From: a virus
Lineage: Duplodnaviria > Caudoviricetes
Virus record (IMG/VR): IMGVR_UViG_3300006805_000023
Strand: one strand, 5' to 3'
Length of the DNA stretch: 64,000 nt
Each line of letters starts with the position of its first letter. The stretch's first letter is position 1. The notes under the pieces were generated by a model. The model was not told the DNA's origin and did not search any database. It saw only the letters and a program-made list of their open reading frames with translations. Both the position numbers and the translations under genes were made by a program. This document shows, piece by piece, positions 6,662 through 61,484 of this stretch.

Positions 6662-7087
6662 GTGAAGAACATCGTCGCCGCCGGAATCTGTTATTACTGC
6701 CCCTCAACCGGAAAGGTCTTGTTGGGGCAGCGCGGTGCGGACAGTGATGGGGGCTCCGGCGAGTGGGCAGCCTTCGGCGGTAAGCTCGAAGACGGCGAGA
6801 CTCTGATACAATGCGCAGTCCGCGAGGTTCAGGAGGAGACCGGTTATAAGGAGTCCAAGCCGATGGCGCTCCGCCTCAACTACCGCTCGACCTGGACCCA
6901 CGGCGACGTCCGGGTGGTGTTTTACTGCTTCATGCAAGCAGTGCCTGCCGAGTTTAAGCTCCCACAGCTCGACCAGACAGAGCACTCCAAAGCGGGCTGG
7001 TTCCCGGCGGACAAAATGCCAGCTGGGCTGCTCAAGCCGTTCGCCAGCAACCTCGACGTGGGAGCCCTCAAGCGCCTGAAGGTCTAG
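6662..7087 (+). CDS. NUDIX hydrolase
   Basis: Nudix box GGKLEDGETLIQCAVREVQEETG. Confidence 0.92.
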   Translation: MKNIVAAGICYYCPSTGKVLLGQRGADSDGGSGEWAAFGGKLEDGETLIQCAVREVQEETGYKESKPMALRLNYRSTWTHGDVRVVFYCFMQAVPAEFKLPQLDQTEHSKAGWFPADKMPAGLLKPFASNLDVGALKRLKV

Positions 7088-7122: not shown

Positions 7123-8247
7123 ATGACCTCCCGTTATCAGGACCCCAAAATCGCCGAGATCTTCTCGGAAGACCGCAAGTATACCCTCTGGCTCCTCATC
7201 GAGGAGGCCTTGGTTAAAGCCCTCGCTCCGGAGGATGTCAGCAGACCGTTCTCGTCCTTCATCCAGGGGCTCCAGGGTGTTAATCTGACCAGCTTCATCA
7301 ACGCCTGCAAACACGAGGAGCAAGGTACCAACCACGACGTCGGGGCGTTCCTGAACGTGCTGGAAGCCAGGGCTGACGGCTGCGTTTCTACCTTCCTGCA
7401 TCGCGGCTTCACATCGTCCGATGTGGTTGACACTGCGACCAGTCTGCAGATTCATGCTGCCCTCAGGCATATCGAGTGGCTCAAACACGACTTCAAGGAG
7501 GCCATCACGAACTCTGGAGACGCCGCGTGCGTCGGCTATACCCACGGGATGCCAGCCGAGGCGATGTGCCTCAGTGCGCGCTGGCAGCGCTGTTTCAACG
7601 AGCTGCGCGACCTACCACGGATCAAGCCGCATCTGACTGGACCACTCGGAGACGCCAAGCATCTTGACATCGACACCAGGATCGAGCTGGCACGACTTCT
7701 CGGTTTCCATAACGATGGTGGAAAAGGCAGAGCGCCAGCCCAGCCCAACTACATGCAGTGCTCGGAGCGGTCGGACTTTGCCAGACTGGCGTCGTCCATC
7801 GCGATCAACGGGAGCGTGCTTGCCAAGATGGCGCTCGACATGCGCCTGTTAGTGTTCAAGGGCGAAATGGGACGGGAAAAGGGGCACCACGAAATGGGCT
7901 CATCCGCGATGCCTCACAAAACCAACCCAGCTGATCTCGAAAAGGTTTGTGGTCTGGCCCGTGTGTTACGCGGCAACGCCATGGTCGCCATGGAGAACAT
8001 TGAGCTCTGGTTGGAGCGCGACATCAGCCACAGCTCGACCGAGCGCATGTGGCTTCCCGACTCCTTCCACCTTTACTGCCACATGTTGACCATTATGACC
8101 AAGGCCGTCGTGAACTACAAGCCGACCCACGAAATGGGAGAGGCTCTAGTTGATAATGAGAAGGACCTGCACACCGCAGCCAACGTGGTTCTGCTGCAAA
8201 AGCAGGGGATGGGACGCCGTGCCGCTTGGCTCAAAGTCAAAGGTTAA
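7123..8247 (+). CDS. purB: Adenylosuccinate lyase family protein (short, 374 aa)
   Basis: TNHDV, FTSSDVVDTA, GYTHG, signature SSAMPHKTNP, WLERDISHSSTERMWLPD. Confidence 0.9.
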   Translation: MTSRYQDPKIAEIFSEDRKYTLWLLIEEALVKALAPEDVSRPFSSFIQGLQGVNLTSFINACKHEEQGTNHDVGAFLNVLEARADGCVSTFLHRGFTSSDVVDTATSLQIHAALRHIEWLKHDFKEAITNSGDAACVGYTHGMPAEAMCLSARWQRCFNELRDLPRIKPHLTGPLGDAKHLDIDTRIELARLLGFHNDGGKGRAPAQPNYMQCSERSDFARLASSIAINGSVLAKMALDMRLLVFKGEMGREKGHHEMGSSAMPHKTNPADLEKVCGLARVLRGNAMVAMENIELWLERDISHSSTERMWLPDSFHLYCHMLTIMTKAVVNYKPTHEMGEALVDNEKDLHTAANVVLLQKQGMGRRAAWLKVKG

Positions 8248-12477: not shown

Positions 12478-14058
12478 ATGCTGCCCTCCACCTCTCCCGT
12501 CCCCTCCCCACACGATCTGGTTTACCTTGAGCTGATGCGCCGTATCCGAGCGCACGGTGACTACCGGATGGAACGCACCGGCACTGGTGCCTATTCGTTG
12601 TTCGCCCAGCAACTGCGCTTCGACCTGACGGACGGTAGCTTCCCGCTGCTGACTACTAAGAAGGTCCACCTGCGCTCGATCATCCACGAGCTGCTCTGGT
12701 TCCTGAAGGGCGACACCAACATCAAGTACCTCAACGACAACGGCGTGACGATCTGGGATGAATGGGCCAACCCGGACGGCGACCTAGGACCTTGTTATGG
12801 CTATCAATGGCGTCAATGGGGGGAGTGGTCCACTCAGCGTTTGGAAAAGAAGGCACCTGTCGTTAAACGTCTGGAGGATGAAATCCCGCCTTTCTGCGAC
12901 TACGATGTTTCCCTCCCTGAAGCCCCGGTCATTACCGATGCTGGCAAGGACGAGCGCAACCGCGCTCTCGTAAAGGTCGTGTTTCCACGTTCCTGCTACT
13001 CGTACACGATTCGAAAGGACCACGCCGAGAGGGGAGTGCGCGACCCCTATGCACCGTCGAAGTGCGGAGTTGGCTGTCTCGGCGAGGATGAGAGGACGCT
13101 TGGGATTCCGGAGACAGTCCTCAAAAACCTCATCGCTTGCTGGAACAAAATGATGGAACGCTGCTACGATCCGAAGTGCAAGGAATACAGGTTCTATGGT
13201 GCCATCGGAGTCAAGGTGTGCCGTCGCTGGCTCTGCAGATCCGCCTTCCTGAGCGACGCCACCAAGCTCCCGTGGTTTGAGCAAAAGTCGAAGGATCTGG
13301 CTGGATACCAGCTAGACAAGGACCATCTGGGAGACAGCACTTATTACTCGCCGACCACCTGCGCTTGGGTTCCTGAGTGGGTTAACTCGGCTTACGCTCA
13401 TACGCAGCCCTTCGTGGCGACAGCTCCGGACGGCACAGAGTATTATCACATTTCGCCTAGCGTGTTTGGCTCGATGCATCAATTGTCGGGGCATTCGATC
13501 TGCCGTTGTTTGCGTGGTGAGAGGCCTCACCATTTCGGCTGGAAGTTCTGCCCTGTTGAGGATCGAGGTCTGCGCTTTAGCTCCCCCACTGATCAGATCA
13601 AGCAGCTGGTCGAGGGCATCGTCAAAAGCCCTTACGGGAGACGCCACATTGTGTCGGCCTGGAATGTGAAAGACTTGCCCACGATGAAGCTCCCACCCTG
13701 CCATTGCCTGTTCCAATGCTTCGTCTCCTCGAAGGGCCGCCTGAGCCTCCACCTTTACCAGCGCTCCGCTGACTACCTGCTGGGCGTCCCCTTTAACATC
13801 GCGAGCTATGCGTTGCTGCTGCTCATGCTGGCTCAGGCCACTGGGAACAAGCCAGGCGAGCTGGTCATCACGTTCGGCGACGTCCACCTCTACTCCAACC
13901 ATCTGGAGCAGGCCGACCTCCAGCTGTCCCGCGCCCCGTTCGGAGCGCCTCGAATGGAGATCGGTGACTCAAAGGACATCTTCGGTTTCAAGTATGAGGA
14001 CTTCAAACTGCTGGACTACACCTCCCATGCTTCCATCAAGGCCGCCATCGCCGTTTAG
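12478..14058 (+). CDS. thyA: Thymidylate synthase with a large in-frame insertion
   Basis: ERTGTG, FPLLTTKKV, ELLWFLKG, IWDEW, DLGPCYGYQW, RRHIVSAWN, LPPCH, YQRSAD, GVPFNIASY, DVHLYSNH. Confidence 0.95.
   Translation: MLPSTSPVPSPHDLVYLELMRRIRAHGDYRMERTGTGAYSLFAQQLRFDLTDGSFPLLTTKKVHLRSIIHELLWFLKGDTNIKYLNDNGVTIWDEWANPDGDLGPCYGYQWRQWGEWSTQRLEKKAPVVKRLEDEIPPFCDYDVSLPEAPVITDAGKDERNRALVKVVFPRSCYSYTIRKDHAERGVRDPYAPSKCGVGCLGEDERTLGIPETVLKNLIACWNKMMERCYDPKCKEYRFYGAIGVKVCRRWLCRSAFLSDATKLPWFEQKSKDLAGYQLDKDHLGDSTYYSPTTCAWVPEWVNSAYAHTQPFVATAPDGTEYYHISPSVFGSMHQLSGHSICRCLRGERPHHFGWKFCPVEDRGLRFSSPTDQIKQLVEGIVKSPYGRRHIVSAWNVKDLPTMKLPPCHCLFQCFVSSKGRLSLHLYQRSADYLLGVPFNIASYALLLLMLAQATGNKPGELVITFGDVHLYSNHLEQADLQLSRAPFGAPRMEIGDSKDIFGFKYEDFKLLDYTSHASIKAAIAV
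12820..13590 (+). mobile_element. HNH-type homing endonuclease-like module inserted in frame in thyA
   Basis: About 257 aa between QWRQW and DQI; W..M..RCY...Y..YG..GV.VC.RW, LDKD...Y.P.TC.W...N and a C-terminal NUMOD1-like segment; visibly more A/T at third codon positions. Confidence 0.75.
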
Positions 14059-15526: not shown

Positions 15527-16819
15527 ATGGCACCCGCTACAACACCACTCCCACAAAACGTCCTCCCACCACGCGTCCTCAGCCCCGGCAAGATCGCCGC
15601 AGTCCTGGATGCTGGCTACGGCTCCTCTTCCAAAGGCCTCGTGTCGGCCTGGATCACCAAGAACGAGCGCCCTGACTTCCTGCTCACCGCCAACGGTCGC
15701 AATTCCTCGCACACCGTGGTGGATAACTCCCTGAAGGCCTCCCGCGAGGCCATGACACCATGCCAGCTCAAGGGCGAGTTCGTCTTCAAGGTCCTGCCGG
15801 TCGGAGCCTTCTACAACAAGTGGAAGGGCTACAACCCGATCATCTACATTGGCCCCGGTGCCGCTTTTACGGTCGAGGACCTCGTCAAGGAAATGAAGGC
15901 CTGCGAGCTGGACAAAACGCAGGTCTGGGTCCACCCGCTGGCATCGGTCGTCACGGAGGCCGACATCGGCTATGAAAACGGCACTTGGGACTTCGACGGC
16001 AACCCACGCCCGCAGATCGACCACGACTCCGGCACCACCAAGCACGGCACCACGGGCTCCGGCGTCGGAGCAGCTCGTGCCAAGAAGTCTCTGCGCAAAG
16101 GCAAGCAGTGGTATGATGTCTCCGACCAGCCTACGATGGGGCAGAGCGGCCTGATGTTCGCCGACACCTTCGAAGAGGCCGTCCTGAAGCGCCTGGCTCT
16201 CGGCAAGACCGGCCTGCTGGACGGTTCTCAGGGTTACCTGCTGAGCCTCTACGGGAAGTTCTTCCCACACTGCACTTCACGCCCCGTCACCCTGGCCTCA
16301 TTCTTCGCCGACATCAACCTCCCGGTCAGTGTGATCGGCAACGTCTGCGCGGTGGCCCGCACCTTCCCAATCCGGATCGCCAGCGTGCGCTATTTCCTGG
16401 ACAACCAGCCCGTCACCCTCGCCGAGAAGGTCGAAGCGGAGTCGAGGGGCCTGTTCGTCAATACTGTGGACTCCAACTCCGGTGGCTGGTATCAGGACCA
16501 ACGCGAGTTGACTTGGGAGCAGGTCAGCGAACAGGCCGGACGCCACATCGAGCCTCAGCTCACCAGTCTGACCAAGCTGCCACGTCGGATCGCCACGTGG
16601 TCCAAGGCCGCGATCCGCGATTTCCTGCTGCACAACGCCCCGCCGTGCGGCTGCAAGACTTACTTGTTTGTGACCTTCACGAATTATCTGAAGGGCTCCG
16701 AGATGAAGCACTGGATGCACCAGAACATCCATGAACTGGACGACGCCGTAACCGAGGTGCTACTGTCCGACTCCCCGGAGACTGACAGCGTGCTGCCACT
16801 GGTGCGGGACTTTGAGTGA
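15527..16819 (+). CDS. purZ: PurZ-type adenylosuccinate synthetase homologue (putative 2-amino-dA synthetase)
   Basis: DAGYGSSSKG (Ser where PurA has the Asp of GDEGKG), NSSHT, KVLP.G, HGTTGSG, SQGYLLSL..FFPHCTSR, ARTFPIR, NSGGWYQDQRELTWEQ, LTSLTKLPRR, TFTNYL. Confidence 0.8.
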   Translation: MAPATTPLPQNVLPPRVLSPGKIAAVLDAGYGSSSKGLVSAWITKNERPDFLLTANGRNSSHTVVDNSLKASREAMTPCQLKGEFVFKVLPVGAFYNKWKGYNPIIYIGPGAAFTVEDLVKEMKACELDKTQVWVHPLASVVTEADIGYENGTWDFDGNPRPQIDHDSGTTKHGTTGSGVGAARAKKSLRKGKQWYDVSDQPTMGQSGLMFADTFEEAVLKRLALGKTGLLDGSQGYLLSLYGKFFPHCTSRPVTLASFFADINLPVSVIGNVCAVARTFPIRIASVRYFLDNQPVTLAEKVEAESRGLFVNTVDSNSGGWYQDQRELTWEQVSEQAGRHIEPQLTSLTKLPRRIATWSKAAIRDFLLHNAPPCGCKTYLFVTFTNYLKGSEMKHWMHQNIHELDDAVTEVLLSDSPETDSVLPLVRDFE

Positions 16820-24706: not shown

Positions 24707-25594
24707 ATGATGGACCGAAAGATTATCATCGGGGGCCTCCCCCACCACGGCAAGACCACCATAGCAGGCATCATCGCGAGCAGGTTCGGAGTGACCTTCG
24801 CGAACACCTCGGACACCATCTACGAGCAGGTCGCCAAGGACTACGGCAAGACCGTCGAGGAGGTCCACGCGATGGATAAGGAGAAGCTGCGCCCGGAGCT
24901 GATCTTCGTGGGCGACACTCTGTGCAAGGTGCACGGCCTGGCCTATCTGACCCTGAAGCAGCTCGAAAAGCACGACGTGGTGTGCGGCGTCCGCAAGCCG
25001 CAGGAGCTGGCTCTGGTCCGGGCCGCCTATCCCAACTGCCTGTTTCTATGGGTGATCCGCCCCGGCTATCCGACGATCAAGGATAGCACCCAGCTTTCCC
25101 ACAAGGACGCTGATCTGGTGATCATGAACGCGGGATCGGTCTCCGACCTGGAGTCACAGGTAACGTCTGGACTGGTCAACAACAGCCTGGGTCTGAGCCA
25201 CCCCGGCAACAGCTTGTGGAACCTGCTGCACTGGTTCGCCTTCCAGCGTGACTGGAACGCACTGGAGCGCACCAACTTCATGCAGGCCTTTGAAACCCTG
25301 CTGTTCATCACCGGCAAGTCCTGCCCGTGCGCCATCGAGTTCCAGGCGATCAAGAAGGTCCTTCCGCCTCCGGCTGGGCACGACGAGTTCTGGAACTGGA
25401 CTTTGCTGGTGCACGACTGGGTCAACTATAAGCGCGGCGTGCCTACCCACTGGGACTGGACCCAGGGCCATCCAGGGTTCAAGATCCTCAAGGAGGCGTT
25501 CTCATCTGGAACCGCCGAAGGCATCCTGTCCGGCACCTCTGTCCCAACCCAACCAGCAACCGACCTCACTTACTGCGCGCCATGCTCAAAATAA
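24707..25594 (+). CDS. dNMP-kinase-like P-loop domain fused to an Erv1/Alr-like helical domain
   Basis: GGLPHHGKTT...R.EL..VG...VR...E kinase pattern; C-terminal LWNLLHW...CPC..EF...W....HDWVN..RG. Confidence 0.6.
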   Translation: MMDRKIIIGGLPHHGKTTIAGIIASRFGVTFANTSDTIYEQVAKDYGKTVEEVHAMDKEKLRPELIFVGDTLCKVHGLAYLTLKQLEKHDVVCGVRKPQELALVRAAYPNCLFLWVIRPGYPTIKDSTQLSHKDADLVIMNAGSVSDLESQVTSGLVNNSLGLSHPGNSLWNLLHWFAFQRDWNALERTNFMQAFETLLFITGKSCPCAIEFQAIKKVLPPPAGHDEFWNWTLLVHDWVNYKRGVPTHWDWTQGHPGFKILKEAFSSGTAEGILSGTSVPTQPATDLTYCAPCSK

Positions 25595-26355: not shown

Positions 26356-26650
26356 GCCGCTGGTCCTAGCCTGGACGGCACCGGCACCCCCGGATTCAAC
26401 CTGCAGCTACGATCACTCCACGGCGGAGACGCTGTTTGGGCGCTTCTTGATAACCTGGAAGGGCTGGAAGATTCTGCCCGAAAATCTGGCGTGGGGTGAG
26501 AGCCCAGGCGATCCTGGATACACGCTTGATGAGACCCCGTGGGGTGAGTTTGAGTGCAGGGGGTGGGACTCCCTAGAAGAAGTCCAGAGGTGGGCGGAGG
26601 ACGAGCTGGAGCGTCGGATGCGGCTCCAGCTCGAAAAGTTCACCGCTTAG
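26309..26650 (+). CDS. Hypothetical protein
   Basis: Start moved to MSATPQQ; overlaps the upstream gene. Confidence 0.55.
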   Translation: MSATPQQAATLPTSAKPLVLAWTAPAPPDSTCSYDHSTAETLFGRFLITWKGWKILPENLAWGESPGDPGYTLDETPWGEFECRGWDSLEEVQRWAEDELERRMRLQLEKFTA

Positions 26651-27663
26651 AGGATCGAGAGCCTGCTGGTTGACAGGTGTTCCATGACGTCCTTGCGATC
26701 CTGATCACACCACCGGCAGTCGGCCATGTTTTGAAACACCAGATCGTGCTCCTTGGCGACGTTGGTACCCAGAAGCACCGGGTTGTCAGAGTTGATGGTG
26801 ACTGGGATCTGCAGGCGTGCTGCCACAACCAGGGCCGTGTTAAGCTCCTGCTTGGAGATGGTCTCAGTCCGCAGGCAGGCCGTCGGGCAGACCTCGAAAG
26901 TGACCTTGCGCAGCCGCTCCATCTCTGGCTCATTCAGCTTGATGTGAGCAAGCGATTTGAGCAGGTCCAGGCCGTGGCCGATCCGCGTAACGCCCCCGAT
27001 GACGTCCAGGACGTTCAGGACGTTCATCCCAGTGTCACGTGCTTCACCGACGTGGTAGGTCAGGAACAGACCCTTTGAGTAGGCTTCGTGGAGGGGAGGC
27101 AGCATGTTCCTGGCAATCCAGTCCTTGTCGCGCTCCTGACCGGTCTCGGTCCCGCAGATGTCGAAGCCGTCGGCACCGGCCTCAATGGCAGCACGCACGG
27201 AGCCCCACAGGACCGAGACCGGTTCACGCCGGTCCGCGCACACGATCAAACGGGTCGAAATCCCGTGGCAGTCACCGGCGTCGCTGAGTCCCTGACGGGC
27301 CGCCCGGATCAGTGGCACCAGCATGTCTGGGCCACGCCGGTAGGGATCGAAGCGCATGTCGATGTGCTGCAGCTTACCGCCGGTCATCAGGTACTGGTGG
27401 ACCACGGCCTCGAAGCATGAGCGCCTCACGGCGTCCGGACCCTGCTGAATGTCCTCCACCATGGCGTGAGGACCGCTCTTACGGCTCAGAAACTCATCAT
27501 GAGTGGTCGTGTTGTGCTTGGTCTTGGTCATCAATTCCTCCAGTTCAATCGAGCTGAGCATGGCCAGCTTGCGCCCGGACCGGTAGGCCAGCTCCCAGAG
27601 GATGTGTGGTGGAGTTGAGCCACCGAGGTGGCAGTGAAAGTCACAGTATTTAGTTTGCTGCAT
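26647..27663 (-). CDS. Adenosine/AMP deaminase family protein
   Basis: DFHCHLGGS, GFDICG, TYHVGE, RIGHG, FEVCPT, INSDNP; start MQQTKY at 27663. Confidence 0.9.
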   Translation of the reverse strand: MQQTKYCDFHCHLGGSTPPHILWELAYRSGRKLAMLSSIELEELMTKTKHNTTTHDEFLSRKSGPHAMVEDIQQGPDAVRRSCFEAVVHQYLMTGGKLQHIDMRFDPYRRGPDMLVPLIRAARQGLSDAGDCHGISTRLIVCADRREPVSVLWGSVRAAIEAGADGFDICGTETGQERDKDWIARNMLPPLHEAYSKGLFLTYHVGEARDTGMNVLNVLDVIGGVTRIGHGLDLLKSLAHIKLNEPEMERLRKVTFEVCPTACLRTETISKQELNTALVVAARLQIPVTINSDNPVLLGTNVAKEHDLVFQNMADCRWCDQDRKDVMEHLSTSRLSIL

Positions 27664-28630
27664 AGACGGTTCCAAGTTTGATGCGTTCCTCGATTTTTGT
27701 GCGGTTGACTTCGGCCAGTTTCTCCACTGTGATCCCAAGCTCGTTGGCGGTGGCTACCAGATAAAACAGCACGTCGCTAAGCTCGTCAAGCATCCGGTCT
27801 TTTGCGCGGTGGCCGAGATCACTGGCGCTGACCTGGGAGCTGTTGATACGGCGCATCACCTTTTGAACCACTCCGAGGACCTCGCCGCCTTCGCTGGCGA
27901 GCCCGGAGGTCGTGTAAACCAGTCCGGACGGGTACTGGGCTACTCGTTTGACCCAGCCCTGGTAGGCGTCGAGCTGAGCAATCATGGTGTCCTCCTCAAG
28001 GGTGAACTCCATCGTGCAGCCACGGTCCGGCGGTGGCGAGGTGCGCAGCCGCATCCCGAAGGACACCGCCTCCTTGGCGAGGAAGGCCACCAAGTGCGTG
28101 CTGGTGAGGTCTGAGTCCTGCACAGTGAGCACTCCAGTTTCCAGCTCGACCGTGGCGGTCGGGAAGTTCTTCTGCAGCAAGATGGCGAGCTTGCCAGCTA
28201 CCACCTGAAGGGACGGCCCGAATGACACCGTGGCCCCGTTCTCGAACAGAGATGAGAGGTCTGGGCGCGTGTAGCCCTCACCCTTGATCCACTTACCAGT
28301 AGGGTCGGCCAGATGGCCGGTCTCCGGGTCGCCCTTGGTGCAGTTTGAGCGGTGCACCTCGTCCCAGGCCAGCTGCATCACCGGAGCGATGCCGAGCCGG
28401 TTGGCAAGCTGGAAGATGAACACCAGCGCGTCGATCAGACAGTCGGTCGTGTGGGTCAGGCGCTCCCGTTCCGTCGGGAGGTCCTTGGCCTCGTCCAGCT
28501 CGGTCTGCAGCTCCTCCTTGAAAAAGGCCTGGTAGGTTTGAACGACGCTGGCGTCGAAGACGGGTTTGCCTGCCAGCGGGATTCTCCACTTTTCGGCAAA
28601 GGCGCGGATGTCGGATAGTTGATTGACCAT
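27650..28630 (-). CDS. Tandem all-alpha NTP pyrophosphatase (DR2231/PRA-PH-like domain plus MazG-like domain)
   Basis: N-domain EEL..E...D.LID...WDEVHRSNCTKG...GKWIKG.GY..PDL; C-domain GLASEGGEV...DELSDVLFY...N..KI..R. Confidence 0.82.
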   Translation of the reverse strand: MVNQLSDIRAFAEKWRIPLAGKPVFDASVVQTYQAFFKEELQTELDEAKDLPTERERLTHTTDCLIDALVFIFQLANRLGIAPVMQLAWDEVHRSNCTKGDPETGHLADPTGKWIKGEGYTRPDLSSLFENGATVSFGPSLQVVAGKLAILLQKNFPTATVELETGVLTVQDSDLTSTHLVAFLAKEAVSFGMRLRTSPPPDRGCTMEFTLEEDTMIAQLDAYQGWVKRVAQYPSGLVYTTSGLASEGGEVLGVVQKVMRRINSSQVSASDLGHRAKDRMLDELSDVLFYLVATANELGITVEKLAEVNRTKIEERIKLGTVYAAN

Positions 28631-28654
28631 CCACACCAGAAAGCACTATAAGCC

Positions 28655-29263
28655 TTAGTCGTCGCCAGGCGAGCTGGAGGAGTTGGACGAACTGGAGCTG
28701 GAGCTGTTCCTGGAGCTGGACGAACTGGAGTTCGAGGAGTGCGAGGACGGGCTGGAGGAACTGTCCGAACTACGGGAGCTGCTAGAGGAGTTGGAGGAGT
28801 TGGAGCTGCTGGAGGAGTTGGAGCTGCGGGACGACGGAGAACTCGAAGAGCTGTTGATGGAGCTGGTCGAGCTGCTGGATGAGCTGGAACTGCTGGACGA
28901 GTTCTGCGAGGAGCTGGAGGACTCCAGGAACCGGTAGTCAAGCACGTCTGCCTCGTGGGCGTCCTGAATGCGCTTGACGGCGTGCGTGAAGTCCTGCTCG
29001 GAGAAGATCTTGACGACCAGCTGGCCGTTGCCCTGGGTCGTGACCAGCTCGAACTTCGTGAGAGAGGTGAGCTCAATCAGCTGCTCCGCCCTGGCACCCA
29101 GGGAGATGCTCTGAGACACGGTCCCGTTGGGGAGACGCACGTCCAGGTTGATGAGCGAGCTTGACTTGGAGGTCAGAGTCAGCTTGAAGTCAGCTGCGAC
29201 GGTGGACAGGACGCGCAGCAGCACGTCTGGAGTTGCTTCGATCTGGAGGGTGGCGCGTTTCAT
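28655..29263 (-). CDS. Protein with globular N-terminus and a Ser/Asn-rich tail of about 85 aa
   Basis: ORF track; tail is almost entirely Ser. Confidence 0.7.
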   Translation of the reverse strand: MKRATLQIEATPDVLLRVLSTVAADFKLTLTSKSSSLINLDVRLPNGTVSQSISLGARAEQLIELTSLTKFELVTTQGNGQLVVKIFSEQDFTHAVKRIQDAHEADVLDYRFLESSSSSQNSSSSSSSSSSSTSSINSSSSSPSSRSSNSSSSSNSSNSSSSSRSSDSSSSPSSHSSNSSSSSSRNSSSSSSSNSSSSPGDD

Positions 29264-29278: not shown

Positions 29279-30064
29279 TTAGAGTCTGGCCAGCTTGGAG
29301 GAGGCGGCAGCCGCCAGACGCCTGGCTTCTTCATTGCTCGGGGCATGCCCGCCACCGCCGTGGCGCTTCTGCTCCTTCTGGTTCTTCTTCCGGCGAGCTT
29401 CGGCAAGGTTCCTCGCCATGATGTTGACGTCGCCTTCACCGGCGTCCAGAGGGACGAAGCCGGATTCGTTGAGGGGTCCGGGAGCTGGGCCTCCGGCGAG
29501 ACTGCCCATGTTGAGCATCGCCATGGCACGGGACTCAGCGGTGCTCTGTGGCATCGGTGCTGGCTGCGGAGCCGGAGTGGGAGCTGGAGCCGTTTGAGAA
29601 GGAGCTGGGGCTGGCGCGGGGGCAGGAGCTGCCGGTGGAGCCTGCACCCCGATCACACGCTGCGCTTCGGAGGTCGAGATCGGGGAGCTGTGTCCTGGAG
29701 TAAGGTCGGGAGCCACCAAGGCCAGAGCGGCTGGCAGCATGCCGTTTTCGTATTCGGCCTGGCTCTGGTTTTGCAGCTGCTGCTCGCCGCCTGAACCGCC
29801 ACCACCTTCGTCCGGGTCGATCTCAAGGCCAAGGGCCGAGGCGTCACCAGTCGTGAACTGACCTTGAACGAACACACCACTGGAGGACCTCTCACTGAGG
29901 AGCCTCTTCAGAGCAGCGGTTTCCTGCGGACCAAGGGTGAGATAACCGTTGGACTCCATGACGAGCTTGCGCACCCGGCTGACGTTTGCGCGCTCGTCCA
30001 AGGGAGGGGTCCTCGATGAGGAAGGGGCGCTGGTACCGAGAAGGGTGTTGAGGAGGAAGCTCAT
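29279..30064 (-). CDS. Probable virion-associated low-complexity protein
   Basis: Pro-Ala repeats, Gly runs, basic C-terminus; late box upstream. Confidence 0.65.
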   Translation of the reverse strand: MSFLLNTLLGTSAPSSSRTPPLDERANVSRVRKLVMESNGYLTLGPQETAALKRLLSERSSSGVFVQGQFTTGDASALGLEIDPDEGGGGSGGEQQLQNQSQAEYENGMLPAALALVAPDLTPGHSSPISTSEAQRVIGVQAPPAAPAPAPAPAPSQTAPAPTPAPQPAPMPQSTAESRAMAMLNMGSLAGGPAPGPLNESGFVPLDAGEGDVNIMARNLAEARRKKNQKEQKRHGGGGHAPSNEEARRLAAAASSKLARL

Positions 30065-30850: not shown

Positions 30851-31200
30851 ACAACCTCACCGCGCTACTCAAGACCGTCGAGCTTGATGAAAGCCACTTC
30901 TCCGACTGGGGTACTGGGGAGTCCGGTTACCTCCAGCTGTCCGATGTCGAGGAGCTGCTCCAGAAGCTCATCGTCGAAAACTCCTGCGTCGGCAAGCATG
31001 GTAAGCACGAACTCGTCAGCATCTTCAGCCAGAACGACGGCCCGGATGGTGTCTCCAAAGAAGTGCGCTGGTGCAGCCGCTGTGGCGCGGTCGTGATTGA
31101 TCGCGACGACGGTAGCCGCACCTTCCCAGGTGCAGCTATGAAAATGCGCCACTCCACATTGTCCCAAGCCGTCCACAACCTCACCCAGATCGCCCCATGA
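30847..31200 (+). CDS. Hypothetical protein with Cys/His ligands
   Basis: C.GKHGKH...WCSRCG; ATGA overlaps. Confidence 0.7.
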   Translation: MNNLTALLKTVELDESHFSDWGTGESGYLQLSDVEELLQKLIVENSCVGKHGKHELVSIFSQNDGPDGVSKEVRWCSRCGAVVIDRDDGSRTFPGAAMKMRHSTLSQAVHNLTQIAP

Positions 31201-31793
31201 AAACCGCCCTGCTTGTCTCCCTCTCGCTGCTTCTCGCCTCATGCTGCTACGACTCAGCACAGCTCACCGTTTCGACCGGACCCAGCTACCGCAACCCGCT
31301 GCTGTGGAACCGCCCCAACCTGACGTGGGCAGTTGACTATTCGACGGTGCCGGTCGGGTTGTCTGGGCGGTGCGGCCTGGACGGGGCGGTGCAGGAGTGC
31401 TTGCGTCCGTGGGAGTCCTCTGGCGTGTTCCGCTTCACCCAGGCCACACAGGGCGTCCGGCCCGACATCAGGATCGGCTTCCGTGATCTCGGCTGCAACA
31501 ACGACCACGCCGGTCGGGCCGGGTTTCCGTGGACTGCTGATCGCGGCCAGATCTGGCTCAACTCCCAGCAAAACTGGAGCACCGGCTGGTCGTTGACGGC
31601 CTGCCAGCTGGGCGACTGGCTGCCGCATGAAGTCGGCCACTCTCTGGGCCTGCTGCACACCAGCTCGTGCAGCTCTTGCATGCAAGAGCATGGACCCTAT
31701 GGGAAACCGACCCACCACGACCTGCAGACGCTCCGCCGCGTCTATGCGCCAACGACCGTGGTGCACCCGGTGTTTGGGCCGTTGGTCCGTTAA
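31197..31793 (+). CDS. Matrixin (M10)-type zinc metallopeptidase, lipoprotein signal
   Basis: LLLASC lipobox, PDIRIGF, HEVGHSLGLLH, Met-turn-like CMQ. Confidence 0.85.
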   Translation: MKTALLVSLSLLLASCCYDSAQLTVSTGPSYRNPLLWNRPNLTWAVDYSTVPVGLSGRCGLDGAVQECLRPWESSGVFRFTQATQGVRPDIRIGFRDLGCNNDHAGRAGFPWTADRGQIWLNSQQNWSTGWSLTACQLGDWLPHEVGHSLGLLHTSSCSSCMQEHGPYGKPTHHDLQTLRRVYAPTTVVHPVFGPLVR

Positions 31794-32031: not shown

Positions 32032-33174
32032 ATGAAAACCCTCGTCATCCTGTCCACCATTATCGGCATCGCCATCGGCGTGGGTTCCGCCTGCGCAGCC
32101 CCGACCCCTCACGTGACCGCCACGTGGGGAGGAGACTATGTTAAGCTCATCGAGATCAAGACCGGCAAGACCTGGCTTGAGTCCTACGACGACTTTTTCG
32201 CCAAGTGCGGCAAGCACAAGCCGTCTGAGCTTGGCGTGAAGGTCATGGGGCGTCTGCCAAGCTGGTATAAAGGGAGAGGGTCACAGCCACCCAAGACACG
32301 CGGCCTGAAACCAGCCCCTCCAGAAGAGCCGGTTGTCGCACCCCTCATTGAATCAGGCAGCAACCCGGTCAACCCACTACTGCCTGACATCGCACCAAAG
32401 ACAATCGGCTTGCTCGATGCCTTCAAGTCGATGATAACCGGTGCCGAGCCGGAGTTCACCATGGGTGAGGACCAGCGCCAGCGAATCGTCCCAGAGACGG
32501 AAGGCTACACCTTGATCCCAGGAATGGAGAAGCCAGCCGCCCGCACCAGAGGGCTTAAGAAGGAGCCGGAGCCAAGCATCTCCGACAGGGTTGTCGCAAC
32601 AATCGACGGCGTGAAGGTTTACTCGCTCCTGACCGAGGACCCGGCACCAAGCACGGAGCCAGCCAGAAAGTCAGGAGTCATTGCCGGTAACGCCGTCACG
32701 ATCACCCCAACCTACGACGTGAGGTATCCGGCTGTCGTCACCCCCTACGCACTCGATGCCCTGTTCAAAGGCGAACTGGCGGGGATGGGCGAGGTCTTCA
32801 TCCGCGAGGCCAAGAAGAACAACATCTGCCCACTGTTCCTGGCTGGCGTAGCAATGCACGAGTCCGACTCTGGCAAGAGCTACCTGTGCCGCAACAACAA
32901 AAACGCCTTCGGCTCCTACGACTCCAAGCACAAGGTGTATCGGTCGTTCCCGAACATTGAGGCTTCCATCGCCTTCACGGCCTCTCAGCTCAACAGCAGC
33001 CTTTACGTGCTCAACAAGAAGAAGATGTGCCACACCATCAGGCAGATTCATGATGTTTACTGCCCGATCGGAGCTGGCAACGACCCCAAGAAGGTCAACA
33101 AGTTCTGGTCGAGCGGCGTCGTTTACCACATGCAGCGCTTTCTTGGACCCACCGTTTACGTAGCCTCCAACTGA
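32032..33174 (+). CDS. Exported protein with C-terminal GH73/glucosaminidase-like muralytic domain
   Basis: Signal peptide; FIREAKKNNI.PLFLAGVAMHES..G.S....NAFG...F.NIEASI...Y. Confidence 0.75.
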   Translation: MKTLVILSTIIGIAIGVGSACAAPTPHVTATWGGDYVKLIEIKTGKTWLESYDDFFAKCGKHKPSELGVKVMGRLPSWYKGRGSQPPKTRGLKPAPPEEPVVAPLIESGSNPVNPLLPDIAPKTIGLLDAFKSMITGAEPEFTMGEDQRQRIVPETEGYTLIPGMEKPAARTRGLKKEPEPSISDRVVATIDGVKVYSLLTEDPAPSTEPARKSGVIAGNAVTITPTYDVRYPAVVTPYALDALFKGELAGMGEVFIREAKKNNICPLFLAGVAMHESDSGKSYLCRNNKNAFGSYDSKHKVYRSFPNIEASIAFTASQLNSSLYVLNKKKMCHTIRQIHDVYCPIGAGNDPKKVNKFWSSGVVYHMQRFLGPTVYVASN

Positions 33175-44327: not shown

Positions 44328-44480
44328 ATGAAACTGACTGAGTCCCACATCACTCGCAATGCGCGAGTTCTGAAAATCCCAAGGACGCGAGGTCGTGTCA
44401 CTCTGGCTGAAGCGCAGGCCCAGTATGACAACATCAAAAACGGCCACCAAGAGCGTTCCAAGAAACCGCGCAACTCATGA
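44328..44480 (+). CDS. 50-aa basic peptide (below the ORF-track cutoff)
   Basis: MKLTESHITRNARVLKIPR...; its TGA overlaps the kinase ATG. Confidence 0.6.
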   Translation: MKLTESHITRNARVLKIPRTRGRVTLAEAQAQYDNIKNGHQERSKKPRNS

Positions 44481-45292
44481 CTTACCGACCCGACCGCCTT
44501 GAATTCGAGCCAGATGACCAGCTGCTGAAGCAGGCCATCGCGGTTGCAACCGCCGCCCACCAGGGAACTGGGCTCCCCGAGTGGAGCGAGCTGGGTTCAA
44601 GAGCGGAGCGGGTGGCAGGTCGTAACAAGATCTCCAAGACCCTCAAGCGCCGTGAACAAACGGCGCTCATGGTGTGGGCTCAGAAGGACGGCCACCTGCT
44701 TGACTCCAAAGCCTTCACGAGTGCCTGGAAAGCCGGTGGCAAGCGCGGCGAGACCGAAAACGAGGTCTATTTCGACGAGGCCGCCCAGGGCTGGTGGAAA
44801 CGCAACGACCTGTCCTACCACGACACCTACCTGAGTTTCTTTCAGCGCGTGGCGCTCCACAACAAGACCTTCCCGGAGGTCCCTCTTGAGCTTAAGGGGT
44901 TCGTGGCCGACTACAACCGCGCCAACCCGGAGCGGGAGTTGATGCTCAAGCCTGTGCTGTTCCAGCCTCACGTGGAGATCGAGAAGAACAGTGACACGGA
45001 ACATGGTGCCACCGAGGAAGAGGTTTTCCGGCACATGACCGCCCTCGGCTATCAGCGGGTCGGCACGCACGACTATTACGACCCCAAGCAGCAGATCAGG
45101 ATTGAGGACCTGCACGATGAGAACGTCTTCTTCAAAAACGGAGAGCTGTTCGTGATCGACCCCGTCATCTATCTGGACGAACGCGGTAAGAAGCGTCGCC
45201 TCCAGGGGTCAGTCGATGCCGTCACGGAGTCCTTCGTTCCAGGGTTGATTCAGTCTCTGCGAGTCTTGACCCACAGGGTTGACGGCTGCTAG
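44477..45292 (+). CDS. Polyvalent-protein-type Ser/Thr kinase-like domain
   Basis: GE.ENEVY...KRN..Y...LHN..FPE...V..QPH...EDLHDENV...FVIDP. Confidence 0.7.
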   Translation: MTYRPDRLEFEPDDQLLKQAIAVATAAHQGTGLPEWSELGSRAERVAGRNKISKTLKRREQTALMVWAQKDGHLLDSKAFTSAWKAGGKRGETENEVYFDEAAQGWWKRNDLSYHDTYLSFFQRVALHNKTFPEVPLELKGFVADYNRANPERELMLKPVLFQPHVEIEKNSDTEHGATEEEVFRHMTALGYQRVGTHDYYDPKQQIRIEDLHDENVFFKNGELFVIDPVIYLDERGKKRRLQGSVDAVTESFVPGLIQSLRVLTHRVDGC

Positions 45293-60778: not shown

Positions 60779-61005
60779 ACGACCCGGCCCCCAGCTACGA
60801 CTTCATCATCTCACGCTTCCTGGCACACCGGCTCGCCCGGTTTGTCAGGCAGGTCGATCAAGAGACCAGCTACTACTCAACCCCGTCCGTCCATGGTCGC
60901 CCCGGCTACCTCCGGCGTGACGGGGTCCGCACCAAGCTCGTGAACCGTGCTTATCGGCGCTACTCAGCTACCGTCCCGACCCTCAGGACGATCGTCGTGG
61001 GCTAG
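60775..61005 (+). CDS. Hypothetical basic protein
   Basis: Start MNDPAPS; ATGA overlap. Confidence 0.55.
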   Translation: MNDPAPSYDFIISRFLAHRLARFVRQVDQETSYYSTPSVHGRPGYLRRDGVRTKLVNRAYRRYSATVPTLRTIVVG

Positions 61006-61484
61006 ATGGCCTTCATGCCGTGCCGGTGAGCGCGGCCAAGGTTCTTCTTGAGCTTGTTGACCACCGCAAGGTCCAGGTCAAGACCCAGGCCGTAGGCTAT
61101 CGAGAGCGCCCGGATGAGCACATCGGCTAGCTCCTCTTCGAAGTTGGCCTTGTCCAACTTACGCACCGCCTCGGTGGCTTCGCTGGCCTCCGAGTGGATC
61201 AGGGCGACATGGGCCAGCAGCTTGTGAGTAGCAGCATGATCGTTGATGTCCTTCGGGAAGTCGTCCGGCGTGAAGGCCTCCCAGCCATTGGCGACGTTGA
61301 TCCGCTGGGCGACTCCACCGATCCCAGTCAGAATTCCCTCGGCAAAGGCCTCGATCTCTTCGTCGGTCGGAGGTGTCGAAGCAAGCTTGGTCAGTGGTGG
61401 CAGGCCGGTCGGGGTGTCAGTGATCGGAGGAGCGTCGCCGGTAGAAACAGGGACGCCAAAAGGGTACTCAGCAGTGCGGGTCAT
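61002..61484 (-). CDS. MazG-like nucleotide pyrophosphohydrolase
   Basis: ALIHSEASEATEA.RK....EELADVLIR.L......D...AV..K...N..R..RHG.K. Confidence 0.85.
   Translation of the reverse strand: MTRTAEYPFGVPVSTGDAPPITDTPTGLPPLTKLASTPPTDEEIEAFAEGILTGIGGVAQRINVANGWEAFTPDDFPKDINDHAATHKLLAHVALIHSEASEATEAVRKLDKANFEEELADVLIRALSIAYGLGLDLDLAVVNKLKKNLGRAHRHGMKAI

Follow-up and report, generated by a model that had tools for sequence, protein, structure and literature searches.

An adenosine/AMP deaminase-family protein as a recurrent partner of PurZ-type synthetases in large tailed phages

Introduction

How would a phage that appears equipped to build its genome with 2-aminoadenine (Z) keep adenine out of that DNA? 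The question is raised by a gene for an adenosine/AMP deaminase-family protein in a stretch of 64,000 nucleotides from the virus record IMGVR_UViG_3300006805_000023 (Duplodnaviria; Caudoviricetes), referred to here as the window. The source is a large tailed phage, since baseplate, SbcC and prohead protease genes are present in the window. Two toolkits for making Z-DNA have been described, one consisting of PurZ, DatZ and MazZ/DUF550 and the other of PurZ0, DutZ, DmtZ and DUF5664 (PMC12884076). Neither PMC12884076, nor its supplement, nor a 2025 metagenomic association study mentions a deaminase, and no link between a deaminase and PurZ in phages was found in the searchable literature, which does not extend to subscription papers. 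A sequence-only reading of the window suggested that the protein could stand in for DatZ, the HD-domain enzyme that depletes deoxyadenosine triphosphate (dATP), by deaminating (deoxy)adenosine or (deoxy)AMP. The safest statement that our observations allow is that PurZ and the deaminase recurrently occur as partners in large phages, the largest of which are without a recognisable DatZ. Beyond this we propose, with belief and doubt in equal measure, that it is a catalytically competent zinc aminohydrolase that serves as the adenine sink of the Z pathway of the phage.

Results

The deaminase gene occupies positions 26647-27663, the interval given in the sequence-only reading, but lies on the minus strand, and it encodes 338 amino acids (aa) from an ATG at 27663 to a stop codon at 26647-26649; a plus-strand reading of the interval is ruled out by stops throughout. 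The frame stays open upstream as far as a TTG at 27738, and we place the start at ATG 27663 because homologues begin at the equivalent position (MQQTKYCDFH, MPPTNYCDFH); a GGA lies 8-10 nt upstream of this ATG. The same window encodes a divergent PurZ-type succino-aminodeoxyadenylate synthetase of 430 aa (15527..16819, plus strand), whose P-loop, GSSSKG, places the Ser that marks PurZ where PurA has its catalytic Asp13. The role of this replacement, S14 in the PurZ of phiVC8, has been described (bioRxiv 10.1101/2025.10.22.683976). The closest solved relatives of the synthetase are phiVC8 PurZ (6FM1, 3e-25) and S-2L PurZ (7ODX, 3e-20), and its best model is NF038379, at 161.3 bits and below the cut-off of 300, with archaeal PurA at 72 bits.

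The two genes are found together well beyond this phage. Deaminases 93% and 71% identical to that of the window come from contigs of 64,922 bp and 33,651 bp, respectively, and PurZ homologues 81% and 71% identical lie on contigs of these same lengths from the same sources, from which we infer that the pair travels together in close kin. Six of the 30 IMG/VR records that hold the closest relatives of the window PurZ carry the deaminase family PF00962. Completeness reaches 90% or more in five of the 30, and four of these five are carriers (G014, G022, G023, G024), while PF00962 is present in none of the 50 records of classical small PurZ phages, 19 of which are near-complete (Fisher test on near-complete genomes, 4/5 vs 0/19, p = 5/10626 = 5e-4, uncorrected for relatedness). 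In the reciprocal test, 27 IMG/VR records, mostly of 100-400 kb, were found with alignments of two deaminase types, and the synthetase family PF00709 was present in 15 of these, including all nine that are near-complete; the P-loops of the partner synthetases are of the PurZ type (GS) wherever they were read. The 408-kb jumbo genome G089 (loci L273 and L274; IMGVR_UViG_3300000976_000008) has two synthetases, one of the PurA type (GDGGKG) and one of the PurZ type (GSCGKG), in addition to its deaminase. Association with purZ in related phages, by which the sequence-only reading proposed to judge its suggestion, is thus strongly positive in both directions and spans at least three deaminase lineages; we estimate the effective number of independent association events at about three or four.

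Further instances came from smaller contigs and from tblastn. A 6.5-kb freshwater contig, L165, carries in order genes for a tail sheath, a Gmk-like kinase, ThyX, a PurZ-like protein, a small open reading frame (ORF) and an A_deaminase; the PurZ-like protein is 56% identical to the window PurZ, and the deaminase, with motifs HCHLSG, YHVGE, RIGHG and TDSP, is 23% identical to the window deaminase. This stretch (L165:626-6365, Ga0181343_1002760) forms a compact myovirus nucleotide cluster, in which the PurZ-like protein is 503 aa long and has an N-terminal extension of about 100 aa. A truncated deaminase stands at the end of locus L109. Three phage deaminases used as tblastn queries against 50,697 phage records matched 2, 8 and 6 records, which taken together belong to Enterococcus, Acinetobacter and faecal phages; Acinetobacter phages are also among the 75 PurZ-positive records, an overlap seen at the level of organism names. 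Searches of IMG/VR with the single deaminase or PurZ sequence gave no match, nor did the clade alignment against IMG/VR and the JGI metagenomes or a megablast of 8 kb against the 50,697 phage records.

The PurZ-associated deaminases are not one clade. They fall into at least three lineages with 17-25% mutual identity, which are interleaved with other sequences. Lineage (i) holds the deaminase of the window phage, with that of L165 placed weakly near it; lineage (ii), of the HLGS...NTDG type, is found in G014, G016, G086 and G087; and lineage (iii), of the HRHxGGS...TDDP type and monophyletic, is found in G002, G022, G023 and G024, to which retrieval with alignment A10 adds G089, G094 and G095. 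In two large PurZ-type phages, the deaminase frame is interrupted by an in-frame stop right after the zinc-binding HRHL (HRHL-stop-LGGS; L231:1471-2436, minus strand, IMGVR_UViG_3300023202_000383, and L233:1381-2457, plus strand, IMGVR_UViG_3300037067_027684). The stop codon is TAG in one phage and TAA in the other, at a place where their relatives have HRHMGGS or HRHFAGS, and the stops could reflect recoding, a gene-splitting two-codon insertion or decay.

The protein itself belongs to the adenosine/AMP deaminase family. Its match to Pfam A_deaminase PF00962 (96.3 bits, E 2.4e-27, residues 7-309) stands against a cut-off of 27 and is therefore far beyond chance. All four amidohydrolase motifs named in the sequence-only reading are present, namely HCH (H10-C11-H12), HVGE (204-207), RIGHG (227-231) and SDNP (292-295); its description of them as intact has to be qualified, as SDNP departs from the canonical [ST]DDP and the Asp of HxHLDG is a Gly. 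The zinc ligands (H10, H12, H204, D293) and the catalytic E207 and H230 are kept, and all six are invariant or nearly so among 65 aligned homologues. An AlphaFold2 model built on the 65 homologues (predicted local distance difference test 95.1, predicted template modelling score 0.93) has the (beta/alpha)8-barrel of the solved ADAs, and the top folds returned by Foldseek are murine, human, Pseudomonas and Vibrio ADA (1FKW, 1ADD, 3IAR, 6N91), with template modelling scores of 0.75-0.78 at 18-21% identity; lower in the ranking come MAPDA/ADAL and Cad1, an ATP deaminase of CRISPR-associated systems. By sequence, the best solved relatives are likewise bacterial and mammalian ADA, at E of about 3e-7, a value that a subfamily profile takes to 5e-32. 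Together, the family score, the ADA fold and the kept catalytic residues make it very probable that the protein is an active purine C6 aminohydrolase.

Assignment to a named member of the family does not follow from this match. The score against the canonical ADA equivalog TIGR01430 is 101.9 bits vs a cut-off of 216.55, the AMP_deaminase profile PF19326 gives no match at E up to 0.01, where PF00962 alone is reported, 9NTE, an AMP deaminase from a snail, matches only marginally, and the ESM Atlas offers only generic 'adenosine deaminase' clusters. The deaminase thus stands outside the curated ADA equivalog and cannot be assigned to AMP deaminase, nor with any confidence to MAPDA.

Two residues of the substrate pocket are changed. 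The Asp of HxHLDG, which as Asp19 of mouse ADA contacts the ribose hydroxyls, is Gly14 in the phage deaminase, and the second Asp of [ST]DDP, Asp296 and the N7 contact in mouse ADA, is Asn294. The aligned nucleoside deaminases of V. cholerae (6N91, HRHLDG) and cattle (1NDV, HVHLDG) keep the first Asp, and it is missing from all of the deaminase lineages described above, with G, S or A at this position in every PurZ-associated phage deaminase examined. Gly14 and Asn294 are fixed in the clade of the window deaminase, which is monophyletic with a support of 1.0 and comprises P0002/P0160 (93% identical), P0003/P0161 (71%), P0004/P0162 (55%), P0005 (52%) and, at 36-41% identity, P0011 and P0012. 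The next-nearest uncharacterised homologues, too, commonly have Gly in place of Asp19, and G, N, S or A in place of Asp296.

The pocket can be set beside that of MAPDA, the N6-methyl-AMP deaminase of the same family, which acts on monophosphates. ADAs are inactive on phosphorylated adenosine derivatives, and MAPDA holds the phosphate by Asn17, which follows HxHL, and by a Lys just past the strand equivalent to RFDP of the phage deaminase, the phosphate pocket being made up of Asn17, His65, Thr98 and Lys100, plus Asp296 (PMC6451127). After the RFDP strand the phage deaminases have a conserved [KR]-R pair, R109-R110 in the window protein, of which R110 is invariant. A motif-level mapping to MAPDA brings Gly14, Asp106, Tyr108 followed by R109-R110, and Asn294 into the corresponding places, and Gly14 together with R109-R110 would fit a nucleotide substrate, which we take as a hint from the sequence. 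The N-terminal 127 aa, searched alone for an alignment with MAPDA, returned noise only.

The sequence-only reading saw no HD-domain dATPase in the window, and at the sensitivity used this holds. Pfam finds neither an HD family nor PF12917, the YfbR-like family of DatZ, over about 117 window ORFs; phmmer with S-2L DatZ and the HD protein of SH-Ab 15497 reaches a best E of 0.66 against window ORFs of at least 40 aa; and a divergent YfbR-like family described below gives no match. Because the window is 64 kb of a contig of 218,247 bp, the absence applies to 29% of the genome. The deaminase has a different fold from PF12917 and could be a functional analogue of DatZ at most.

Across genomes the distribution of the two enzymes is largely, and not strictly, complementary. 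Of the small PurZ records, 37 of 50 have a YfbR-like DatZ, as do 17 of the 19 near-complete ones, and in 35 loci it adjoins PurZ. In the branch of close PurZ relatives it passes the cut-off only in G028 (67.8 bits), which is also the one near-complete genome of that branch without a deaminase. Conversely, six near-complete PurZ-type genomes (G022, G023, G024, G089, G094, G095) have a deaminase and no YfbR-like HD protein, as judged by Pfam at E 0.01 and by the divergent family; weak matches to the general HD family PF01966 in deaminase genomes were considered as a hidden DatZ and rejected, being SpoT-type HD_4 proteins or a CCA-adding enzyme. The divergent family itself consists of proteins of 240-340 aa with an H...HD...E..GD signature, which score 16-19 bits, below the Pfam cut-off, and share 32-41% identity. 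Its members are encoded in G014 (L244:930-1853, plus strand), in the Flavobacterium phage MaF61 (L084:841-1857, plus strand) and in G013 (L245:690-1415, minus strand), with others in G016, G086 and G087, and from their sequences they are likely to be an overlooked DatZ-like enzyme of PurZ-type phages of 125-170 kb.

This family does away with a rule of 'deaminase or DatZ, never both', which we rejected in view of its occurrence in G014, G016, G086, G087 and MaF61. If G014 is scored as having DatZ, the test of exclusivity over the 24 near-complete genomes of the original set weakens from p = 0.0014 to p = 0.018. The suggestion that the deaminase substitutes for DatZ therefore survives in part: the PurZ association, the six genomes with a deaminase and no YfbR-like HD, and the converse case of G028 favour it, whereas G014, G016, G086 and G087 carry both enzymes, for which reason we describe the deaminase as a PurZ partner rather than as a strict DatZ replacement. 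Separately, a SpoT/RelA-type HD_4 protein of 164-193 aa, a probable alarmone hydrolase, is present in all of the deaminase-bearing large PurZ phages checked (L237-L240: G014, G022, G016, G023).

In the window phage, the deaminase gene belongs to a tight operon of five minus-strand genes flanked by plus-strand genes, with gaps of 15, 18, -14 and 3 nt. The operon opens with an ORF of 261 aa (29279..30064), followed after 15 nt by one of 202 aa (28655..29263) and after a further 18 nt by a gene for a tandem all-alpha NTP pyrophosphatase of 328 aa (27650..28636). The overlap with this MazG-like gene that the sequence-only reading described is real and amounts to 14 nt, as the ATG of the deaminase lies inside 27650-28636, whose TAA is at 27650-27652. 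The N-terminal domain of the tandem pyrophosphatase matches phrog_671 'nucleotide pyrophosphohydrolase' and its C-terminal domain matches Pfam MazG and MazG-like, with acidic motifs present in both halves. The last gene, 3 nt downstream of the deaminase, is a 76-aa ORF of no family (26413..26643). Searches of Pfam, PHROGs, NCBIfam and the PDB returned nothing for the 261-aa and 202-aa ORFs, which are without an assigned function; because they open the MazG-deaminase operon, they are candidates for further steps of the same pathway.

Other genes of the window could supply the rest of a Z pathway. A phage PurB of the adenylosuccinate lyase family (374 aa; 7123..8247, plus strand) matches TIGR00928 at 195 bits, below the cut-off, and directly upstream of it lies a NUDIX hydrolase (6662..7087, plus strand; PF00293, 72.9 bits), a candidate (d)NTP/(d)NDP hydrolase. 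A second, single-domain MazG of 160 aa (61002..61484, minus strand) is the sole window ORF to match S-2L MazZ, weakly at E 4e-4, and is a candidate for the conversion of dGTP to dGMP. The N-terminal part of a dNMP kinase (24707..25594, plus strand; phrog_139, 6e-14), a candidate dZMP/dGMP kinase, is encoded 1 kb from the deaminase operon on the opposite strand. Thymidylate synthase (ThyA) is encoded at 12478-14058 on the plus strand (PF00303, 358 bits) as one 526-aa frame, in which the matched stretches are split in two by an insert resembling an I-HmuI/NUMOD endonuclease domain. The window further encodes, all on the plus strand, a Kinase-PolyVal Ser/Thr/Tyr kinase (44477-45292; 97 bits), a matrixin-type metallopeptidase (31197-31793) and a glucosaminidase-domain protein (32032-33174).

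Discussion

We propose a model for adenine exclusion in which the deaminase acts together with the pyrophosphatase that precedes it in the operon. The tandem MazG-type enzyme, which shares a transcript with the deaminase and is coupled to it in translation, would convert dATP to deoxyadenosine monophosphate (dAMP) and pyrophosphate. This step is suggested by what is known from other Z phages, where DutZ/DUF5664-1 (in PurZ0 phages) and a DUF5664-DUF550 tandem (in SH-Ab 15497) take dATP and dGTP to their monophosphates (PMC12884076). The NUDIX hydrolase may also take part in this conversion. The deaminase would then turn dAMP into deoxyinosine monophosphate (dIMP) and ammonia, a purine C6 chemistry that the intact catalytic residues support, and the dAMP could come from the pyrophosphatase or from degraded host DNA, from which T4-like phages release it. 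A reversed order, in which the deaminase would take dATP to dITP and MazG would take dITP to dIMP, would have the same net result. Since adenylate kinase re-phosphorylates dAMP and not dIMP, deamination would make the removal of adenine irreversible. The purine ring may then pass to the guanine/Z branch, the supplier of half of the bases in a Z genome; its conversion from dIMP to dGMP by host IMP dehydrogenase and GMP synthetase is speculation on our part. Where a phage also encodes a DatZ-like enzyme, a deaminase of this kind could instead act on the deoxyadenosine set free by DatZ. The model thus retains the earlier suggestion that deamination of (deoxy)adenosine or (deoxy)AMP is a route for adenine exclusion, in line with the PurZ association, and amends it in one respect: a nucleoside or monophosphate deaminase cannot lower dATP alone, and an upstream pyrophosphatase is needed.

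The nearest functional counterpart of the deaminase would be the DutZ-DmtZ pair, with DatZ a less close one. DatZ of S-2L, phiVC8 and other PurZ phages is also encoded with PurZ and shares the role that we propose, that of keeping adenine out of Z-DNA, and most of its distribution is complementary, with DatZ alone in 17 of the 19 near-complete small PurZ phages, the deaminase alone in six large ones and both in four phages. DatZ differs in being an HD phosphohydrolase that yields deoxyadenosine and triphosphate, whereas the deaminase is a zinc TIM-barrel aminohydrolase that acts on the base and could remove dATP only by direct action or after a pyrophosphatase. PurZ0 phages such as Wayne and Ghobes dispose of dATP in two steps, in which DutZ/DUF5664 converts dATP to dAMP and the linked DmtZ converts dAMP to adenine (PMC12884076). 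The MazG-deaminase operon would follow the same logic of a pyrophosphatase and a linked dAMP-destroying enzyme, as a third and convergent version with no sequence relation; DmtZ is a hydrolase of the nucleoside-deoxyribosyltransferase family that can also transfer deoxyribose-5-phosphate to Z, whereas the deaminase would give dIMP.

Within its own family the deaminase shares the fold, the zinc site and the catalytic Glu, His and Asp of Add/ADA1 (1ADD, 1NDV, 6N91; TIGR01430), from which it differs, at 18-21% identity, by the changes at Asp19 and Asp296, by a longer and different lid between strands 1 and 2 and by a shorter C-terminus. With MAPDA/ADAL (6IJN, 8QCH) it has in common a small size, the lack of an Asp after HxHL and basic residues near the phosphate; MAPDA is nevertheless a weaker match than ADA in sequence and fold, keeps Asp296 and uses Asn17, Thr98 and Lys100 where the phage protein has Gly14, Asp106 and Tyr108 followed by R109-R110. 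Cad1 and RdrB, the latter from the RADAR defence system, are ATP/dATP deaminases and show that triphosphates are within reach of an ADA-family catalytic domain, in which case dATP could be attacked directly; they are large, multidomain, oligomeric, signal-activated host proteins, and Cad1 structures match only residues 122-312 or so of the deaminase (E 2e-10).

Several observations weigh against the adenine-sink model. Asp106 sits, by the motif mapping, at the position of the phosphate-binding Thr98 of MAPDA and does not favour a phosphate there, and substrate choice cannot be fixed from sequence. Cellular relatives of about 30% identity, from GTDB Verrucomicrobiota and Chloroflexota, share Gly14 and Asn294 in unrelated contexts; these relatives are uninformative on function because their neighbours vary and no MazG, PurZ or PurB is close by. 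The near-complete G014, G086 and G087 and the partial G016 carry a YfbR-like HD protein beside the deaminase, and MaF61, the cultured phage with the closest PurZ, encodes PurB as well but has no deaminase. The MazG partnership is found only in the operon of the window phage: a MazG partner was looked for in the other deaminase lineages and not found, and in five other PurZ phages the deaminase neighbours are kinases, ThyX, a homing endonuclease and regulators. Finally, the co-occurrence counts are uncorrected for shared ancestry and draw on few complete genomes, and the PurZ branch, whose Z-DNA is a prediction from the genes, lies below the NCBIfam PurZ cut-off (161 vs 300).

A wider formulation, which we offer tentatively and lean against more than towards, is that large myovirus- and jumbo-type phages possess a third Z toolkit. 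It would consist of a PurZ-type synthetase, a PurB of their own and a deaminase recruited at least three times independently, which would act on dAMP or dATP as the means of adenine exclusion, would fully replace DatZ in the largest phages and would possibly feed host adenine nucleotides to the G/Z branch (dAMP to dIMP to dGMP to dZMP).

The first alternative is a sharper version of the adenine-sink model with the same chemistry, namely strict replacement of DatZ, in which the phage would have no dATP triphosphohydrolase and the MazG-deaminase pair would be its only means of adenine exclusion. The 64-kb window without an HD or YfbR-like ORF, the six near-complete genomes in which the weak PF01966 matches resolve into HD_4 or CCA enzymes, the converse pattern of G028 (DatZ and no deaminase) and the near-complete small PurZ genomes, 17 of 19 of which are DatZ-positive and none of which has a deaminase, all agree with it; the window, however, covers 64 of 218 kb and lineage (ii) phages carry both enzymes, and we judge strict replacement to be rather unlikely. 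A second alternative is that the protein is a nucleoside deaminase, which would convert deoxyadenosine or adenosine to deoxyinosine or inosine downstream of a DatZ-like enzyme or a nucleotidase, clearing the product, salvaging the purine towards guanine and so complementing DatZ. DatZ does release deoxyadenosine (PMC12884076). The closest solved folds are indeed those of nucleoside deaminases, and four phages have a deaminase together with a YfbR-like HD protein. The coupled pyrophosphatase, however, would yield a monophosphate and not a nucleoside, no nucleotidase or DatZ is seen in the window, and the Asp residues that contact ribose and N7 in ADA are replaced by Gly and Asn, which leaves this alternative improbable in our view.

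We consider each of the remaining readings very unlikely. A purine nucleotide cycle of AMP deaminase, adenylosuccinate synthetase and lyase could adjust the adenylate and IMP pools or produce fumarate and ammonia with no link to Z-DNA, and the three enzyme classes of the eukaryotic cycle are indeed co-encoded here and in relatives, with G089 having a PurA-type (GD) synthetase as well; against this, Ser occupies the place of the PurA Asp13 here and in all the partner genomes for which the P-loop was read, and PurZ structures, rather than any PurA, are the nearest to the synthetase. Just as small a chance attaches to the deamination of 2-aminoadenine nucleosides or nucleotides to guanine derivatives, a variant of the counter-possibility raised in the sequence-only reading, which would keep Z from the ribonucleotide and RNA pools or tune the level of Z. 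ADAL1/MAPDA acts on nucleoside monophosphates of N6- and O6-substituted purines and of 2-aminopurine (PMC6451127), and the changed base-contact residue N294 could reflect a different purine; such an activity would oppose the PurZ and PurB of the same genome, Asn, Gly or Ser at the position of N294 is common in bacterial homologues outside any Z context, and the canonical TDDP persists in lineage (iii), whose deaminases also belong to PurZ phages. Weakest of all is a role apart from Z, as an ATP/dATP deaminase for host takeover, a destroyer of an adenine signal in defence or a sanitiser of N6-methyl-(d)AMP, for although ADA-family enzymes deaminate ATP in CRISPR-associated systems (Cad1, a weaker structural match here) and the family tolerates many 6-substituted purines, the protein is a plain single domain of 338 aa without a sensor or CARF-type domain, and the PurZ-type Ser and the co-occurrence with PurZ argue against any reading apart from Z, the near-exclusive co-occurrence being explained by none of these roles.

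What we describe is a known enzyme family in what would be a new and recurrent role within a known pathway, and the deaminase-PurZ pattern is unexpected for specialists of Z genomes. If the deaminase is the adenine sink of the PurZ branch of large phages, it would represent a third, convergent solution to adenine exclusion, and Z-type purine rewriting would extend to phages of 125-410 kb. The pairing of PF00962 with a PurZ-type PF00709 would then be a marker by which such phages may be spotted in metagenomes, and a small single-domain enzyme of this kind could aid engineered Z-DNA production through the irreversible removal of dATP.

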